A DNA stretch of 62,968 nt, filler included, from Neolecta irregularis DAH-3 (Eukaryota): the NCBI GenBank assembly GCA_001929475.1. It is 9 parts of 9 records of this genome, joined end to end, with 100 filler letters (N's around TTAATTAATTAA, not from the genome) between each part and the next. Parts side by side here need not be neighbours in the genome. Positions count along the whole stretch, not along the records: positions 21,879 to 32,938 come from LXFE01004230.1; 8 more parts are not named here. One strand, 5' to 3'. A program made the position numbers and the translations under genes. This document shows positions 1,710-61,905 of this stretch, piece after piece; positions within the stretch are counted from its first letter, which is position 1; each line of letters begins with the position of its first letter. The notes below the pieces were generated by a model, which was not told the DNA's origin, ran no database searches, and was given only the letters and a program-made list of their open reading frames with translations.

Positions 1710-3128
1710 CTACCATCGCTCTATACTCCGTCGAATTCTATCTCGTCCTCCGATACGGTCGAGAACATTGCCTAATATACGATCACTGCCGGCACGACCG
1801 TGTCTTCCTCCTGGGGTTGAGGGGAATGTTCGAAGGAGAGGAGAGCCAGAGCGGCTAGATAGACGACGATCATCAATTGAAGGGGCGAATTCTTCGCGAA
1901 TACTACGGGAGCGAGAGGGTTCAGGGAGTGAGATTCGGGTTGGTGGACGTTCAGAGAGGGAGAGGGAGAGTTCAGTTAGACCTCTACAGATTGTATCTCC
2001 CCGTTTTTTACTCGGCCCACCTTCTTTGGCGAGTTGAATGGCTTCTGAACTGACTGCTTCTAGAGCCCGATAACTTTCTGTGCTTAGCACCATTTTGGCT
2101 TTGATCAAGGCAGCATGCAGCAGGGGATGGGTGTTTGGAGAACCAGAAGAACTTGTCGTTGCTGTTGTTGGTCTTTGTTGGTCAATCTCCAACCTTTTGA
2201 TGCGGGTTTTCAAGTCTTCTAGTTCGTCCCAGACGGTATAAGTAGTACTCGCATTGGAACTCCCATCTTGCGAGCGGCTTTGTCGGGCAAGGTTTGGCTC
2301 TGTTTGGCTTCGCGGGACTCCTAATCTGGTATCTGAAGTCTCGTATTCTGGATAGCAGGGATGGCGACTCGAGGGTCTGTTTTCGGAAAAATGGTGCCGG
2401 GAAGTAGGTCTGTTTTCGTATGGCGAACAGCTGGCTGGTCGTGAGGGTGGATTAGTTTTATCATAGTGTCGTAGAGAACGTGAAGAGTCATCATCTTGTG
2501 GATAATAATTGTTGATTCGTGACTGATTGGTATATCTGCTAGTGGGCCTCTCGAACCGAGAAGAAGGCCGTTCTTCGTACACTGCGATTACTTCATGTCG
2601 AGTTATATTTCCAGAGCCTTCTTGTAGTCTGCGACGATCGGATTTTTTCGGACTTGACGGGGTAAACTTTCTCGGGGTCTCATCAATGTCCGGAAATTGT
2701 TGTTTTCGTGGAGTTGGTAAATCTGACGACGCACTAGCTCGTCGCTCGAGATATTCCATGGTGCGCGCGCGCTCGCGTAACCTCGAATCTGAGTCGGAAG
2801 CGGAGGCCGAAGTAGGATGGAAAGTGGAATTAAGAGGAGGCAGTCTGCCGGTATAGTCTGCCGAATACAAGCCGTCCCTTGGTGAAGCACGGCTACTGGA
2901 TCGGTCTACAAAAGACGATGGAGTTTCAGATGGACATCCTGAGCGGACAGTTCTCCAGGACTCGATGCTACTTTCGTCGAGACCCTTGCGCTGAGACTGC
3001 AAACCCGTCATGATTCCCAGTGACCGGCGGCTGAGGGTCGGCTTGGTTATGGATCCCTTTAGCGGACTCTCCCTCTTTGCAAGACTTAAAAACAAATCCG
3101 CGTCTTCGGTTTCGATGTTCGAAGCCAT
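1710..3128 (-). CDS. Ser/Arg-rich protein with conserved coiled-coil, Mto2/Spa18-like (non-centrosomal MTOC)
   Basis: Long ORF, probable ATG at 3128 (MASNIETED). Motifs TVWDELEDLKTRIKRLE and HPLLHAALIKAK..YRALEA resemble ascomycete Mto2/Spa18 homologues (recalled). Confidence 0.55.
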   Translation of the reverse strand: MASNIETEDADLFLSLAKRESPLKGSITKPTLSRRSLGIMTGLQSQRKGLDESSIESWRTVRSGCPSETPSSFVDRSSSRASPRDGLYSADYTGRLPPLNSTFHPTSASASDSDSRLRERARTMEYLERRASASSDLPTPRKQQFPDIDETPRKFTPSSPKKSDRRRLQEGSGNITRHEVIAVYEERPSSRFERPTSRYTNQSRINNYYPQDDDSSRSLRHYDKTNPPSRPASCSPYENRPTSRHHFSENRPSSRHPCYPEYETSDTRLGVPRSQTEPNLARQSRSQDGSSNASTTYTVWDELEDLKTRIKRLEIDQQRPTTATTSSSGSPNTHPLLHAALIKAKMVLSTESYRALEAVSSEAIQLAKEGGPSKKRGDTICRGLTELSLSLSERPPTRISLPEPSRSRSIREEFAPSIDDRRLSSRSGSPLLRTFPSTPGGRHGRAGSDRILGNVLDRIGGRDRIRRSIERW

Positions 3129-8180: not shown

Positions 8181-8224
8181 NNNNNNNNNNNNNNNNNNNN
8201 NNNNNNNNNNNNNNNNNNNNNNNN

Positions 8225-8236
8225 TTAATTAATTAA
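8225..8236. other. Artificial contig linker (stops in all six frames); also at 15279, 21823, 32983, 37956, 56929, 59830, 61850
   Basis: Identical TTAATTAATTAA flanked by N runs at eight sites. Confidence 0.97.
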
Positions 8237-8528
8237 NNNNNNNNNNNNNNNNNNNNNNNNNNNNNNNNNNNNNNNNNNNNAGTACCCTGCTGGAGGATTA
8301 GATGAGGTTTTTGTTGATCCAGCTTTCTGTATTTCTCTACTAGACTTGATTTTGTAATATAAATCAGGTGCCCAGTATTCATTGAATTCTTCCGCTCACA
8401 TCAGTCACATATGATATGACATCATCTTGAATACCATCCACTGGTAATCGAAATGGAATCCAGAAAGAATCCAACTCCCAATTGTGCTAGTATCACATTT
8501 ACATCTCATCGTTGAGCCTCAGATTTAG

Positions 8529-15234: not shown

Positions 15235-15520
15235 NNNNNNNNNNNNNNNNNNNNNNNNNNNNNNNNNNNNNNNNNNNNTTAATTAATTAANNNNNNNNNN
15301 NNNNNNNNNNNNNNNNNNNNNNNNNNNNNNNNNNAAACTCTAAACCACAGGAAACCGCTTTGACACTTGTGCGACCTTTGGTTATTGAATAGACGAGTTG
15401 GCAGTTCTCGTGCTGGATCGACAAACATCTTGATAACAAAGAGGATTACTTGAAATCCTTAAATTTCGCCTAGGTCGCGTGTCTCTGATTAAATCCTGGT
15501 CCAGGCCGCGTGTCAAATGT

Positions 15521-21089: not shown

Positions 21090-21778
21090 CTATTCTCTAT
21101 CGCCGAAGCGGCGCTTGCTCAGCTCGTATGTGGAGAGCATGATTGCGCAGGAGGGGGCGACTTTGGCGGTGCGGGCGACACAGCCGGTCCACAGTTTGCG
21201 GCAGCCGTGCCGCCTGAGGATGTCTGCGAGGATGTGCAGCGTGCTCCCGCTGCCGGCGTGGACCTGGCGCTGGGTCTTGACCAGGTCGAAGGGGTGCGTG
21301 AGGAAGGAGGCGACGCTGCCGCTGCAGAAGCCTGCGGCCAGCGAGTCGGCAAAGACGGAGCAGTCGGAGGCGCAGTCAGAGGCGCAGTCAGAGGCGCAGT
21401 CGGACACGGAGCGGGAAAGCGCGGCGCGGATGGCCTCGACGCCGATCCAGTACAGGCCGCTGAACGGCACGTCGCGCCACAGCGTGGGCGTCAGGCCGCG
21501 GTACAGGAAGCGCAGCCCGCGCCGGCGGACGTGGAGCGCGAGGTCGGCCGCAACGTGCCGAAAGTGCGACGGCGTGGCGTGCTGCTGAAGCGACGGCGTG
21601 GCGTGCTGCTGAAGCGACGGCCGAAGCGACGGCGCGGCGTACTGCTGCAGCTCCGGCGCTCCCTGCAGGCGCGTGCGGAACAGCTCCAGCGGCGCAATCA
21701 GCGTCACCGCCAGGATGCGCGCCGCACTGCCGCACAGCAGCGGCGCCAGCACCGGCGACTGCGGCGGCGCGTGCCGCC
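21090..21778 (-). CDS. MTM1: Mitochondrial carrier Mtm1/SLC25A39-40-like, 5' partial
   Basis: APLELFRTRLQ, PTLWRDVPFSGLYW, HPFDLVKTQRQ, KVAPSCAIMLSTYE. Confidence 0.85.
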
Positions 21779-22417
21779 NNNNNNNNNNNNNNNNNNNNNN
21801 NNNNNNNNNNNNNNNNNNNNNNTTAATTAATTAANNNNNNNNNNNNNNNNNNNNNNNNNNNNNNNNNNNNNNNNNNNNAGTTCCTGGATGATGGCTCCTT
21901 ACCTTTTGGTATAGGACTCATCATCCATAGACTCTTCACCCGGTGGTACTAAGCTAAGCTCCCTTGTTGGTAGTAGCATAGCATAAGGACAGAGAACCAT
22001 CCTTACACAATATACCCCCTTTAATACCTCTCTAATCTCTACAAACTCTCTCTCCTAATCTCAGCCTCAAGGAAACTAAACCATGCTCCCTCCTCAGGTA
22101 AATCAAATCTCCAAGTGAGAAGAAGAGTCAAAGTCCCCGCGAACCTACCCGAAATTGCAGCCTGCATGTTTCAAGCAATACCTGACAAATTTAGCCTTCT
22201 TGCGTAAATAGATCTTAATTGTAAACCCTGTACTTGTAGATCATGTTAGTGTAATGCCCAAAGTCTCACAGTAGCCAGTCAGAGGACAACAAACCAGTAA
22301 AAATATTTGTCTCCTATGGATTATTATATGCGTTGCTGGTGACGAAAGTTGCCTCAGAATCACTAACCACCAACTTGTCCTTTTTATCTTTCCTGTTTCA
22401 TCCATCCTTCCTCCACC

Positions 22418-24303
22418 ATGATATTTCCCCATGCTGCTCCAGCAACGAACCTTGAATGATATGCCCTCTCTGTTTTTGACCCAGTGCTGACTAGGCTACG
22501 CTCTCGCAGGTATTTGTTTTGTTCCATCTGGGTGATACTACCACTTTCAGCTTGACATCAATGCCCGTCCCTCCCGCTATTATAGACGTTCGAGCATCAT
22601 TGTAACTATTGGGCCATCCACAAATAGTGTGGAGATGATCAACAAACTTAGAATAGCCGGTGGCAACATTATTAGAATGAATTTTAGCCATGGAAGTCAT
22701 GAAGTAATAGTATCTCGTTGATAGTATGTTGACTCGGATAGTATCATCAAAGCGTGATTGACAATACTCGTGTCGTTGAGAAGGACTATTCTCATAGATC
22801 GTTGGCTATCGCTCTTGATACTGTGTGTCCTAGTTTCCATGACGCCTGCTCATAATTTACAGAAAGGCCCAGAAATCCGTACCGGAAATACTGTCGATGA
22901 CAGTGACGTATCGATCACGTTCAAACCTGGCTATCTAATTTCTTAGTATCCAATTCTTGCCGGAGATGAGATGATTATTACTACCGACCCAGAATACAGC
23001 CAGAAGTGCACTAATAAGATCATGTATCTCGATTACACCAATCTTGCTAAAGTCATTCGAGTTGGGAAAATAATATATGTCGATGATGGTGTTTTGTCGT
23101 TTGAAGTTCTTGAGATTCAAGATCATCAAAGTGTCAGAGTTCGATGCCTCAACAACGGGAAAATTTCCAGTCGGAAAGGAGTCAATCTTCCGAATACTGA
23201 CGTCGATCTCCCTGCTCTTTCCGAAAAAGACAAGGCCGACTTGAGGTTTGGTGTCAAGAACAACGTTGATATGATTTTTGCTTCGTTTATTCGTCGTGCG
23301 CAAGATATTTTGGATATTCGTGAAGTTCTCGGTGAAGAAGGAAGTGATATCAAGATTATCGCGAAGATTGAGAATCGACAAGGTGTTAACAACTTTGACG
23401 AAATCCTCAAGGAGACTGATGGTGTCATGGTTGCTCGAGGAGATTTGGGAATTGAGATCCCGGCCCCTCAAGTCCTCATTGCTCAAAAGATGCTCATTTC
23501 TAAGTGCAACCGAGCTGGGAAACCGGTTATTTGGTATCTAGCCGCTGTCAGCTGTGGTTTAGACTTTTAGTGCTACGCAGATGTTGGAGTCGATGACTTA
23601 TAATCCTCGACCAACCCGAGCTGAAGTCTCCGACGTCGGGAACGCAGTCCTCGATGGTGCCGACTGGTGCGTGCACATCACAATCATTTGTATGACTGTC
23701 TAGTGTTATGTTGTCTGGGGAAACTGCCAAAGGTAAGTATCCTGAAGCATCTGTTCAGATGATGCACGAAACCGTTCTTATTGCCGAATCCGCAATATGT
23801 TATACTCCTCTATTCAACGAAATTCGCCTCCTTACTCAAAGCCCTATGGACACTGTTGAAACTGTCTGCTGCTCTGCTGTTTCTGCCTCTATGGAACAAG
23901 GTGCCAAAGCAATCATTGTTCTATCAACCAGGTTCTACACCTCACTTACCTGAACTGACATGCAGTGGCAATTCTGCTCGGCTCTGTGCGAAATATAGAC
24001 CGAGTGTCCCAATTCTGATGGTTACCCGAAATGTTCGTGCTAATCGATTCTCTCATCTTTCACGAGGAGTTTATCCTTTTTTATACCCTGAGCCGAAGCC
24101 TACTACTGCTGCGGAATGGCAGAAGGGTGTTGATACACGACTAGAATGGGGCATGAAGCAAGGTATCCAGCTTGGATTGCTTAAACCTGGTGATTCAGTC
24201 ATTGCTGTTCAGGGATGGAGGGGTGGCCATGGAAATACAAACACACTCCGCGTATGCTGTCGGTGGGAAATGAGGCTGATGGTAGATCTTGACCGCTTTC
24301 TAG
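22418..24303 (+). CDS. PYK1: Pyruvate kinase
   Basis: [76 protein letters not shown]; multiple short introns, the first being AT-AC (22459-22499). Confidence 0.97.
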
Positions 24304-24384: not shown

Positions 24385-26445
24385 TTATAAAACGCCAATT
24401 CTATACGTTTCCTTTAAAGTCTGTCTATCAACTTCGGACGGACTACCAACCATCAAGTCTGCCCCACTTCCGCTTTTTGGAAAAGCGATAACATCTCTGA
24501 TTGAATCTGTTCCAGCCAGCAGGGCGCATAAGCGATCAAATCCCAGAGCGATCCCACCATGAGGGGGACAACCACTGGCTAAAACGGACAATAGATGATC
24601 AAATGTCTGCAACTTTCCCACAGGAATTTTGAGAACATCTTTGAGAACAAACTTTTGCAACTCGGGGTTATGAATCCGTATACTTCCGCCGCCCAACTCT
24701 ATACCATTCACGACGAGATCGTAATGCTCTGCACGAACTCGGTTTGGATATAGTTGAAGAAGATGAATGTCGTCTAGCTTGGGCGCGGTAAAAGGATGGT
24801 GAGTCGACGCTAAGCCGGCCTTGCCCCCTTGTCCTGGCTCATTGCTCACGGGAGTGAATAAAGGAAAGTCGTAGATCCAGAGGAATTGGAAATCATTGGG
24901 TTTACTAGGTGGTAACAAGTTATATTTCACGGCTTGCTCGTAGAACAACTCCCTCGCTTTCCCAAGAGGTGTTGTTCCGCCCTAATTTGTCATAATAAGA
25001 AATAAAGAGATTATACTGATGTGCAATGGGGTCTGTGGTGAACGATGACCAGATCACCAATTTCGAGCCCGAGAATACTATTTAAATGGTCGACATTTTC
25101 GACTCTGCAGCCTTTTAAACAAGGATTTCCCTCTATCCAGTCCTTCAGATTGAGTTCATTGATTCTCGAGGTAACAGGTCTGGAACCTTGTTTTGTTGAA
25201 CATAGTTCACAAGTGGATGTTCTTAGTGCATTCGACAATGTTCCGCCATTTTTAAGGACGATAGCTTCGATTACCGGGTTGTGGTCAGTTGGCATCACTT
25301 GGTTTGAGATATCTTTGATGAGGAGAGGGTTTCGGAGGTCTGGTTTATCCGAGCCGTACTTTTTAGGATGAGCTTTGGAAGTAAGTGGAGAAATGTACAG
25401 TTGAGATGGCTTGACGGTAGGTTAATCTCTTGAATGGTTTATCCCGGGGGAATTGCATTCCTTTTATTGCTGAGAATATCATTTTGATGATATCTTCGAC
25501 CACATTCTGTATGATTTGAGGGGTCACAAAGGCCATTTCCATGTCCAACTATTTCATGAGGCAGGGTTCAAAGTAGAGATATACCTGAGTAAATTCGGGC
25601 TGGCGATCTGCTCTTAAATCTTCATCTCGAAAACAGCGAGCGATTTGAAAATATTTATCGATGCCGCCGGCCATCAGGATCTGTTTATACTGCTGTGGAC
25701 TCTGAGGAAGGGCGTAGAACTTGCCTGTTTGGCGTGATGGAACGATGAATTCTCTGGCTCCTTCTGGGGTCGATTTGAAGAGCAAGGGAGTCTCGATTTC
25801 GGTAAAGTGGTGCTTATCGAGCAACAAGTTGCGACACAATTGCATTACTTTGGAGCGCATGCGGATATTTTTCTGCAGGGCGGGAGAACGAAGGTCGAGG
25901 TGCCGGTGCTGCAAGCGGACGAGGGGCTTGACTGAGTCGAGGGATGGAGATGACGGGAGAAATGGCAGCGGATCCTGGGCCTTGTTGATCAATGTCACAT
26001 CCTCGACGTCGATCTCAATTTTTTCCAGCGAGGAAGAGATCTGGGGCCTGGGTGAAACGGTGCCGGTGATGTGGACGATGCTTTCTGAGGGGATGCGGGC
26101 GAATTTCTCGATGAGCGCGGGCGAAGGCGAGTTCAAGACGAGCTGGACCGAGCGGGCCGCGGTGTCTCTTAGCAGAAAGAAGCGGAGGCCCTTTGCGATT
26201 TTGCGGTTGGGGACGATGAGCCAGCCATTGAGAGAGACAAAGGCGCCGATGAGATTTGGTGACAGCGTCGAGGGAGAATGGGAGGCGCGCGGGAAGGTGA
26301 CTGCGGGAAATTAGATAAGCGATCCGCAGCAGGCAAACATGCGGGAGTCATGCAGGAACGGCAGCGCCGCATTCACAGACAGCCATCTCCGCGGACACAG
26401 CGGCAAACGACAGCGCGAAAGCGAGCGAGGCAGGAGCGGCGGCAT
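24385..26445 (-). CDS. MSD1: Mitochondrial aspartyl-tRNA synthetase
   Basis: Arg-rich presequence; STPEGAREF, LPQSPQQYKQILM, RCFRDEDLRADRQPEFTQ, YGSDKPDLR, HHPFTAP, PPHGGIALGFDR; first intron GC-AG (26301-26342). Confidence 0.95.
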
Positions 26446-31500: not shown

Positions 31501-33240
31501 CAGTACTATTTGGGCAGCGTATCACCCATACCCGCCTTCCTACCTGCCTCACCAACTTGTCTCGCTAGCCTCTCCCATCACTCCCACCTCTCATGAGTCC
31601 CTCCATTCCTGCCTGTCCCTCCTGTCCCTTCCCTCCAGCCAAGTCGGGGATGGGGAAGGGTTGCGTAGAGGCAAGGCACCAGGATCAGGTGGAACAGGAG
31701 CGACTACGGAAGGTATAGATGCGGGTTAGGGAACATTTATAAAAGCAGGAGCGGGTGGACGATTGTTGGGTAGTCCGACATAGCACACAGGAGTAGCAGT
31801 TGATTAAATGCATAGTCAACTGTGCCCGACTAGCATATCAGGCACAAAGACAAAAAAAGGATCGTAGTGAACCTGCGTGATCCCTATCCATCCTCTACCT
31901 ATACATTTGCCGGGGGAAACCGAAGCCTGCATCGGAAAAGTAGTCGCTTGTGCGGTACTGGCGCTTCTGGGAGGGCGGGGGCGAGGTCGACGTCGTCCTG
32001 TGCTCGCAACGCTTCGCGACTGCTGGCTGCTCTTGACATCGCGTTCGGCGTTTGCTTCTTCGCGCTCGGCCAGGAGGTGTTCAACCACCTTCAATCTAGT
32101 AACAACCACGCTATGTTTATCCCTATTATCTACGTGATTATGATGGCCGTGTCCTCGGTTGCTCTGCGCTGCAAAACAGCAAGTCGTTCTTATTTCCCTC
32201 ATTTTCTGATATCAGACAGTGACTGTTCTTCGTCAAGTTTGGATGAAACGAATTACACCTACACTCGTTTTCAACAATATAGATCGATTGATAACAGAGT
32301 TGCGATTAACACCCCTCGATCGTCTGCCGCCTGCCTGTGCTGCCTCTTTGCACTCGACCGCTTTGCATCCGCGAAAGCGCCGCCCAGGCCCTCGCAACCC
32401 TATTCGCACACCTTGACTTGGACTCCATCAGACTCACCTACTCTCCCTAACTCGAAGAATTGACTCTTGAGGTCTGGGTCCGCCCTCGTCTGATCAAGCA
32501 TTCAAAACTCTTCCCAGCATTTTCTACAAGAATTAATGTCCCGTATAGATCCTTTATTCACCCTACTTCTCACACTAATCAGTGGTCCCAGGACTCCAGA
32601 GCCTNNNNNNNNNNTATCAGACTCGCCTACTCTCCCTAACTCGAAGAATCGACTCTTGAGGTCTGGGTCCGCCCTCGTCTGATCAAGCATTCAAAACTCT
32701 TCCCAGCATTTAATAATTAATTTCCCGTATAGATCCTTTATTCACCCTACTTCTCACACTAATCAGTGGTCCCAGGACTCCAGAGCCTCTTGATGCAATT
32801 CCTACTACGCCCAACCAAGAACACAGAGATGTTGGTGGATTACTTCTGCGTGCTGGCGCGTTTGTAACAGCTTCTCGCATTCCGTATTTCAACCAGGAGA
32901 TTCTATCGCTTTCATATCAAGGGTAGAATCCATTGCTANNNNNNNNNNNNNNNNNNNNNNNNNNNNNNNNNNNNNNNNNNNNTTAATTAATTAANNNNNN
33001 NNNNNNNNNNNNNNNNNNNNNNNNNNNNNNNNNNNNNNATGTATAAACCGAGTGTGGAGGTTTGGTAAAGAATAAAATCCACTTCAAGCCCTGAGAAATG
33101 CCGATTAAGATCAAAGGCTTAACCAAGTCACCGAGGACGATGATAACCCCAATAGCAATTGCATTCAACGAATGCAAATTAAACCCCCCTAAAAAACAAT
33201 AGAAAGTCTAATATTTATGTTACAAATCTAACTGTCATTT

Positions 33241-37505: not shown

Positions 37506-38027
37506 ATCGTCCTTCCTCAACGAGAGAACGTTTATTTCGACAAAACCGTCCTTGGAAAGCAGTCGAATGGTGAGAATCTGTGTAGAACAAGTGGAAGAAA
37601 GGTTTACATTCGCTGGGTCTCTGACGGAGACTCACCTTGCCGTTAGTTATGCCAATCTTTTTCTTGAAGCAATTTGTTTACTTTTGAAAGCAGTAACTCA
37701 TGAACTGCCTTGGTGATATCAAGATGCTGTACCAGTATGTATAACGGTTATGTCTGATATCACAAAGTTTCTTCAAGGTCTTTTGTCATTTCCATACCCT
37801 TTCAAACCCCACCATATGTGCTGATATCGAATGAAATTTGATTATTCAATCGTTTCCTTGTGAAAAACACTTCACTTGGTGATAAACTAGAGCATAATTG
37901 TCTGGATTCAANNNNNNNNNNNNNNNNNNNNNNNNNNNNNNNNNNNNNNNNNNNNTTAATTAATTAANNNNNNNNNNNNNNNNNNNNNNNNNNNNNNNNN
38001 NNNNNNNNNNNTAACAATTTTTAATTA

Positions 38028-56884: not shown

Positions 56885-57066
56885 NNNNNNNNNNNNNNNN
56901 NNNNNNNNNNNNNNNNNNNNNNNNNNNNTTAATTAATTAANNNNNNNNNNNNNNNNNNNNNNNNNNNNNNNNNNNNNNNNNNNNCTCTTCCTCTTCCTCT
57001 TCCTCTTCCTCTTCCTCTGCCTCGTCCTCTGCCAGTGCATCTCCGCCCTCGCTGCGCAGAAAAGCA

Positions 57067-59757: not shown

Positions 59758-59885
59758 TGATTTTGAAAAGTGGAGTCGGACGTTTNNNNNNNNNNNNNNN
59801 NNNNNNNNNNNNNNNNNNNNNNNNNNNNNTTAATTAATTAANNNNNNNNNNNNNNNNNNNNNNNNNNNNNNNNNNNNNNNNNNNN

Positions 59886-61805: not shown

Positions 61806-61905
61806 NNNNNNNNNNNNNNNNNNNNNNNNNNNNNNNNNNNNNNNNNNNNTTAATTAATTAANNNNNNNNNNNNNNNNNNNNNNNNNNNNNNNNNNNNNNN
61901 NNNNN

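Follow-up and report, generated by a model that had tools for sequence, protein, structure and literature searches.

A likely U2-type AT-AC intron beside a 10-nt microexon in the pyruvate kinase gene of Neolecta irregularis

Introns that begin with AT and end with AC while otherwise carrying a U2-type 5′ site are rare. One survey counts 24 of them among 610,067 introns and describes them as conserved between orthologues, with examples of this AT-AC II class in human SCN4A and SCN5A and in TAF2 of human and fly (Sheth et al. 2006, PMC1557818). The same source recounts yeast experiments in which replacing the first G of an intron by A was rescued, less efficiently, when the last G was replaced by C (Parker and Siliciano 1993; Chanfreau et al. 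1994, cited in PMC1557818). In Ganoderma lingzhi 13 AT-AC introns have been reported, corresponding to 0.014 % of splice sites, with Sanger data confirming one of them (PMC11590231). Minor introns present a different picture: according to a survey of more than 3000 genomes, Ascomycota and Basidiomycota have no convincing minor introns and have lost most minor snRNAs (PMC10639083), a statement made for Dikarya generally in a main text that does not name Neolecta. Rhizophagus and Basidiobolus are named there among the fungi that retain minor introns. The searchable literature contains no mention that we could find of an AT-AC intron in Neolecta, and the word intron is absent from the main text of the Neolecta genome paper (PMC5309816), which does mention that RNA of N. 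irregularis was sequenced.

Here we describe such an intron near the 5′ end of the pyruvate kinase gene of Neolecta irregularis DAH-3. Our reading, to which we assign a probability of about 80 %, is that 22459-22499 is a real spliceosomal AT-AC intron, removed constitutively by the major spliceosome, which splits a tryptophan codon as TG/G and is followed by a microexon and a GT-AG intron. It is a rare further example of the known U2-type AT-AC ("type II") introns and does not reveal a new mechanism. With the animal AT-AC II introns it shares the AT-AC ends, an otherwise U2-like 5′ site and a position kept between orthologues across large distances. It differs from them in belonging to an ascomycete, in its length (41 nt, and 56 nt in the second lineage described below), in lying beside a 10-nt exon and in interrupting a glycolytic gene; moreover, dependence on the major spliceosome was established by experiment for SCN4A and SCN5A, whereas for the Neolecta intron we infer it (PMC1557818). 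The yeast mutants have the same pair of end bases in an ascomycete in which, as presumably in Neolecta, the major spliceosome acts on them, and they supply the likely mechanism; those were laboratory mutants spliced at reduced efficiency, whereas the Neolecta intron is natural and kept in two lineages. Ganoderma lingzhi offers AT-AC introns within Dikarya and a gene model that, as in Neolecta, was broken by an unrecognised intron; it is a basidiomycete, other genes are concerned, and the relevant passages of PMC11590231 contain neither conservation across lineages nor an adjoining microexon.

The window, that is, the whole 62,968-nt stretch of DNA that was analysed, is a chain of contigs, and genes flanking a linker need not adjoin in the genome. 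Linkers of the form N44-TTAATTAATTAA-N44 are found at 21779-21878 and at nine more places, which include 8181-8280, 15235-15334, 32939-33038, 37912-38011, 56885-56984, 59786-59885 and 61806-61905; gaps of 10 N occur as well. Islands of at least 58 % G+C in this 44 % G+C genome (14101-15300, 20701-21900 and 56401-58000) lie at contig ends beside linkers. The assembly may break at G+C islands, or the islands may be foreign sequence. One island, 21090-21778, contains on the minus strand an open frame that, from its motifs, may encode a mitochondrial carrier protein. Just downstream of the pyruvate kinase gene, at 24385-25421 on the minus strand, open frames split by short introns presumably belong to an aspartyl-tRNA synthetase, again judging by motifs.

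The identity of the gene is clear from full-length homology. Its largest exon, 22947-23534, matches 7999 proteins in a protein search, among them fungal pyruvate kinases whose full-length members carry both the PF00224 barrel domain and the PF02887 C-terminal domain, and its exons correspond in every letter to P0121, the deposited N. irregularis DAH-3 pyruvate kinase isoform A. The best match, P0011, belongs to a cluster that also includes P0121 and the deposited isoform B, P0122. Our model has 10 exons separated by introns of 34-41 nt, 9 in all, ends at 24303 and encodes 514 aa (Table 1); introns 3-9 are 34-40 nt long and all GT-AG, and exons 4-10 fill the rest of 22704-24303, with the stop codon ending at 24303. 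The protein is colinear with P0011 (489 of 514 residues identical, no internal gaps), exon 1 aligning to M15...E27 of P0011, and falls among ascomycete pyruvate kinases in a tree.

Table 1. Proposed structure of the pyruvate kinase gene, in window coordinates
Feature	Position	Strand	Details
Exon 1	22418-22458	+	41 nt; 13 codons beginning with the ATG, plus the first two bases (TG) of Trp
Intron 1, AT-AC (putative)	22459-22499	+	41 nt; interrupts the Trp codon in phase 2; 5′ site ATATGC, 3′ end CTAC
Likely branch site CTGAC	22487-22491	+	branch A 9 nt from the 3′ end of intron 1
Exon 2, microexon (putative)	22500-22509	+	10 nt; third base of Trp plus Leu-Ser-Gln
Intron 2, GT-AG	22510-22550	+	41 nt, phase 0; GTATTT...TTTCAG
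Exon 3	22551-22703	+	L-D-I-N-A-R ... S-H-G-S-H-E
Intron 3, GT-AG	22704-22741	+	
Intron 4, GT-AG	22823-22862	+	
Intron 5, GT-AG	22908-22946	+	
Intron 6, GT-AG	23534-23570	+	
Intron 7, GT-AG	23667-23703	+	
Intron 8, GT-AG	23932-23965	+	
Intron 9, GT-AG	24252-24285	+	

At the 5′ end of the gene, the first ATG past an in-frame stop (TAA, 22364-22366) is at 22418-22420. Its frame runs for 13 codons and closes at TGA 22457-22459, the stop that the sequence-only reading of this DNA had described. That reading had further proposed that a 41-nt AT...AC stretch of locally typical length is removed ahead of a 10-nt microexon. The length is indeed typical of the gene, and when 22458 is joined to 22500 and 22509 to 22551 the sequence reads N-L-E-W-L-S-Q-L-D-I-N-A-R and continues in frame into the remainder of pyruvate kinase; P0011 reads across the same joints, and two metagenome loci have the same arrangement. 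Among the splices considered, only the removal of 22459-22499, which begins ATATGC and ends GGCTAC, restores the frame. The joint is fixed to a single base: it cannot slide, because the G that ends the exon differs from the C that ends the intron, and the A that starts the intron differs from the G that starts the microexon. Needed for the frame, starting with AT and ending with AC, the stretch falls into the class of AT-AC introns, and the short, in-frame, conserved exon of 10 nt that follows it, coding (W)-L-S-Q, into that of coding microexons.

Canonical alternatives were sought by eye. The only GT dinucleotides within 22418-22509 are at 22472 and 22485. Pairing them with the AG at 22493-22494, 22508-22509 or 22549-22550 gives introns of 23-38 or 65-79 nt, and donor 22472 with any AG leaves all three ATG frames broken or closed; no open canonical path was found by eye, the frames being followed for donor 22472 only. 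The case named beforehand as speaking against the AT-AC intron, use of the TAG at 22492-22494 with an upstream GT, is covered by this inspection and within the same limits yields no open path. Nested two-step splicing was also considered and set aside: once an internal GT...AG at 22472-22494 is taken out, the AT...AC ends still remain. In the orthologous metagenome locus L045, likewise, no canonical splice with an open frame was found.

P0011 provides the nearest comparison. This protein of 528 aa is encoded on a 1657-nt contig, 96 % of which is covered by the frame; it reads N-L-E-W-L-S-Q-L-D-I-N unbroken over both joints, and it starts without a methionine, within sequence homologous to the 5′ leader of the window. 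As 1657 nt leaves no space for 341 nt of introns and there is no initial Met, the contig looks, from its size, like a transcript of a close relative. Its DNA is absent from the 80 loci, out of 211 relatives, kept from a metagenome scan, in which the top locus is 76 % identical.

The same 80 loci show both how general the peptide is and how unusual the split is. The W-L-S-x-L stretch is general across fungal pyruvate kinases: 69 of the 80 fungal loci encode it unbroken, 66 with W and 3 with R, and the suggestion that the splice restores a Trp typical of fungal pyruvate kinases is thereby borne out. A further 9 loci end before the stretch or show no N-terminal match. The remaining two, L045 and L046, separate metagenome records that are identical across 500 nt, are split exactly like the window. 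In L045 an ATG, 13 codons and TG, together 41 nt as in the window, precede a 56-nt intron (ATATGT...GGCAC, 2713-2768) within the same Trp codon, so placed that position, phase and terminal dinucleotides equal those of the window, and the same holds for L046. Its 10-nt exon, 2769-2778, codes for (W)-L-S-Q, the residues of the window microexon, and is followed by a GT-AG intron of 151 nt that matches window intron 2 in position and phase. The L045 model has 515 aa, 379 of them identical to the window protein, and six of its seven introns lie at the codon position and phase of window introns (14/2, 18/0, 69/0, 306/2, 414/2 and 510/0). When the two loci are aligned, 13 bases are identical across the 5′ joint, and TGCTGA and AC/GCT are also common to both. 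Other introns are not shared: L045 has an extra 35-nt intron at 2991-3025 (codon 38, phase 1, in the T-I-G/G-P motif), a site near which other fungal loci such as L035, L043, L048 and L066 are also interrupted, and lacks the window introns at codons 96, 111 and 338.

The organism behind L045 clearly stands well apart from Neolecta. Among the best 120 matches listed, its largest exon is at most 81 % identical to any named pyruvate kinase, and a 26-row tree places it beside Neolecta and Protomyces/Savitreella (support 94/93), apart from Pezizomycotina; being derived from a single gene with long branches, the exact placement is not to be leaned on. Because that organism is not closely related, the AT-AC intron and its neighbouring microexon are, by this comparison of loci, older than the split between Neolecta and the L045/L046 ascomycete. 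The AT-AC intron and microexon are thus well supported by comparative evidence and the intron is almost certainly real; that N. irregularis itself splices 22458 to 22500 we infer from the same comparisons.

How much of this could arise by chance depends on what is counted. For the bare motif ATATGY..CTRAY..AC the window has 6 matches where 3.12 would be expected, at least as many turn up in 13 of 100 shuffles, and its GT...AG analogue occurs once against 2.19 expected; since neither scan rises above chance, the bare motif proves nothing alone. The coding context is another matter. When 22459-22550 was shuffled 200,000 times, only 31 shuffles gave a G-Leu-Ser-Gln 10-mer that led into a GT and had 30 nt or more to either side, and in 470,595 bases, both strands, the pattern TG/ATA..AC/G-Leu-Ser-NNN/GT was found solely in the window, L045 and L046, each time in the pyruvate kinase gene. 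The coding context is therefore beyond chance, and the bare motif is not. A crude scan for short introns that merge frames was dropped because it did not discriminate: GT-AG ends returned 1195 candidates, and ten end pairs chosen arbitrarily returned 1082-1899. The 5′ flank of the gene contains a second ATATGC...CACTAAC...AC match, 22326-22374, which stops one base short of the point where homology to the P0011 frame starts (~22376). It is probably a coincidence, about three such matches being expected by chance in the window, and might conceivably represent a leader intron.

The splice signals of intron 1 resemble those of its canonical neighbours. ATATGC is the A-for-G version of the GTATGC that opens intron 9, whose branch is CTGAT; the 5′ site of L045 is ATATGT, its GT-AG introns beginning GTAAGT, GTATTT and GTATAT. 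Of the 8 GT-AG introns of the gene, 7 have an NTRAY motif 6-15 nt from the 3′ end, as do all 7 L045 introns; in L045 the branch of intron 1 is CTGAT, 11 nt from the 3′ end. Under the working definition of U2-type used in PMC1557818, a 5′ site matching the U2-type consensus except at +1, comparison by eye with 14 local GT-AG introns shows the 5′ site to be U2-like apart from +1. The sequence-only reading had likened the donor to GTATGC and called the branch U2-type, and both do match the gene's own GT-AG introns. What it said of the literature also agrees with the sources: PMC10639083 finds no convincing minor introns in Ascomycota, and the yeast rescue described in PMC1557818 indicates that the major spliceosome can splice reciprocal A/C ends, less efficiently. 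From the U2-like 5′ site and branch, together with this literature, the major (U2-type) spliceosome is the likely agent of removal.

Under this reading U1 and U6 would read A-TATGC, a 5′ site otherwise consensus-like, and U2 would pair with the branch sequence, CTGAC, whose A lies 9 nt short of the 3′ end, while the compatible A...C pair would stand in for the usual contact between the first G and the last G of the intron. Introns of 34-41 nt would each be recognised as a unit, so that a 10-nt exon between two of them would be no obstacle. Either single reversion, to GT-AC or to AT-AG, would impair splicing, and the intron may have persisted through the harm done by such single steps.

Several other readings of the same locus can be set against this one. 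If Neolecta and the L045 organism had kept the minor spliceosome that other Dikarya lost, intron 1 could be a U12-type AT-AC intron, sharing with that class its terminal dinucleotides and a branch near the 3′ end, here 9-11 nt away. The 5′ site of U12-type introns is rigid, (A/G)TATCCTT, ATATCCTT, and their branch is TCCTTAAC, some 10-15 nt from the 3′ end. The signals seen here depart from both: the window has ATATGCCC and GTGCTGAC and L045 ATATGTCC and ATGCTGAT, with 5′ sites ATATGC and ATATGT in place of ATATCCTT and branches CTGAC and CTGAT that repeat the motif of neighbouring GT-AG introns in place of TCCTTAAC. The minor introns that were described first had AT-AC ends as their classical hallmark, yet the survey that says so reports, over more than 3000 genomes, that convincing minor introns are absent from Ascomycota and Basidiomycota, the group to which Neolecta belongs (PMC10639083). 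We consider such an intron very unlikely. An Rfam search gave 0 matches on the 63-kb window alone, which is uninformative for the remaining 14 Mb of the genome. It is also unlikely, if easier to imagine, that intron 1 is the relic of an ancestral U12-type AT-AC intron that survived the loss of the minor spliceosome toward Dikarya. Such a relic would have gained its U2-type 5′ site and branch by drift, keeping its AT-AC ends, and would have been held since, each single-base step toward GT-AG breaking splicing; if true, a minor-to-major conversion in fungi would still be visible, and dated, in this intron.

Removal by the major spliceosome is also compatible with a regulatory role, in which weak AT-AC ends would allow retention to turn pyruvate kinase off. 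Retention does bring an in-frame TGA at once, in the window and in L045, and in the window the predicted 13-residue product agrees with what had been proposed earlier; in yeast, A...C ends are spliced less efficiently than G...G (PMC1557818), and the arrangement has been kept for long. The stop, however, follows from TGG being split after TG by an intron starting with A, so that TG/A forces it with no need for selection, and conservation is equally explained by the harm that both one-step reversions would do. A switch is therefore, in our judgement, decidedly improbable. The models in the public annotation, P0121 and P0122, have neither the AT-AC intron nor the microexon, and the isoform A N-terminus can be reproduced by joining 22431-22472, a start in another frame, to 22551 onward. 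This, however, requires a 78-nt intron with TT-AG or GT-CA ends, non-canonical as well and, against 34-41 nt elsewhere in the gene, twice as long, and leaves 14 N-terminal residues that match no homologue and lack the Trp of 66 of 69 loci. Isoform A also reads through intron 9, giving a false 25-residue tail absent from P0011, and isoform B, which starts at the internal Met of M-I-N-K-L-R, is without the conserved R-R-S-S-I-I-x-T-I-G-P segment. It is hardly credible that the deposited models are right; both are wrong, P0121 at both ends. Least of all can we believe that a GT-AG intron has been disguised by miscalls at its two end bases. The assembly is fragmented, its contigs chained by linkers, but two errors would have to fall exactly at the two ends and yield the one compatible pair, in a genome whose paper reports 199-fold coverage (PMC5309816), and L045 and L046, from independent assemblies of another organism, have AT and AC there too.

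The first consequence is a corrected public gene model: the N-terminus of P0121, which lacks the conserved Trp, is wrong because the AT-AC intron and microexon were missed, and its C-terminus is wrong because the last intron was missed. More generally, pipelines limited to GT-AG and GC-AG introns will break genes in fungi rich in short introns. For studies of intron evolution the arrangement offers a marker common to Neolecta and the lineage of the L045/L046 ascomycete. It would also place in an ascomycete, naturally and under conservation, the A...C intron ends that yeast genetics first defined as a compatible pair.
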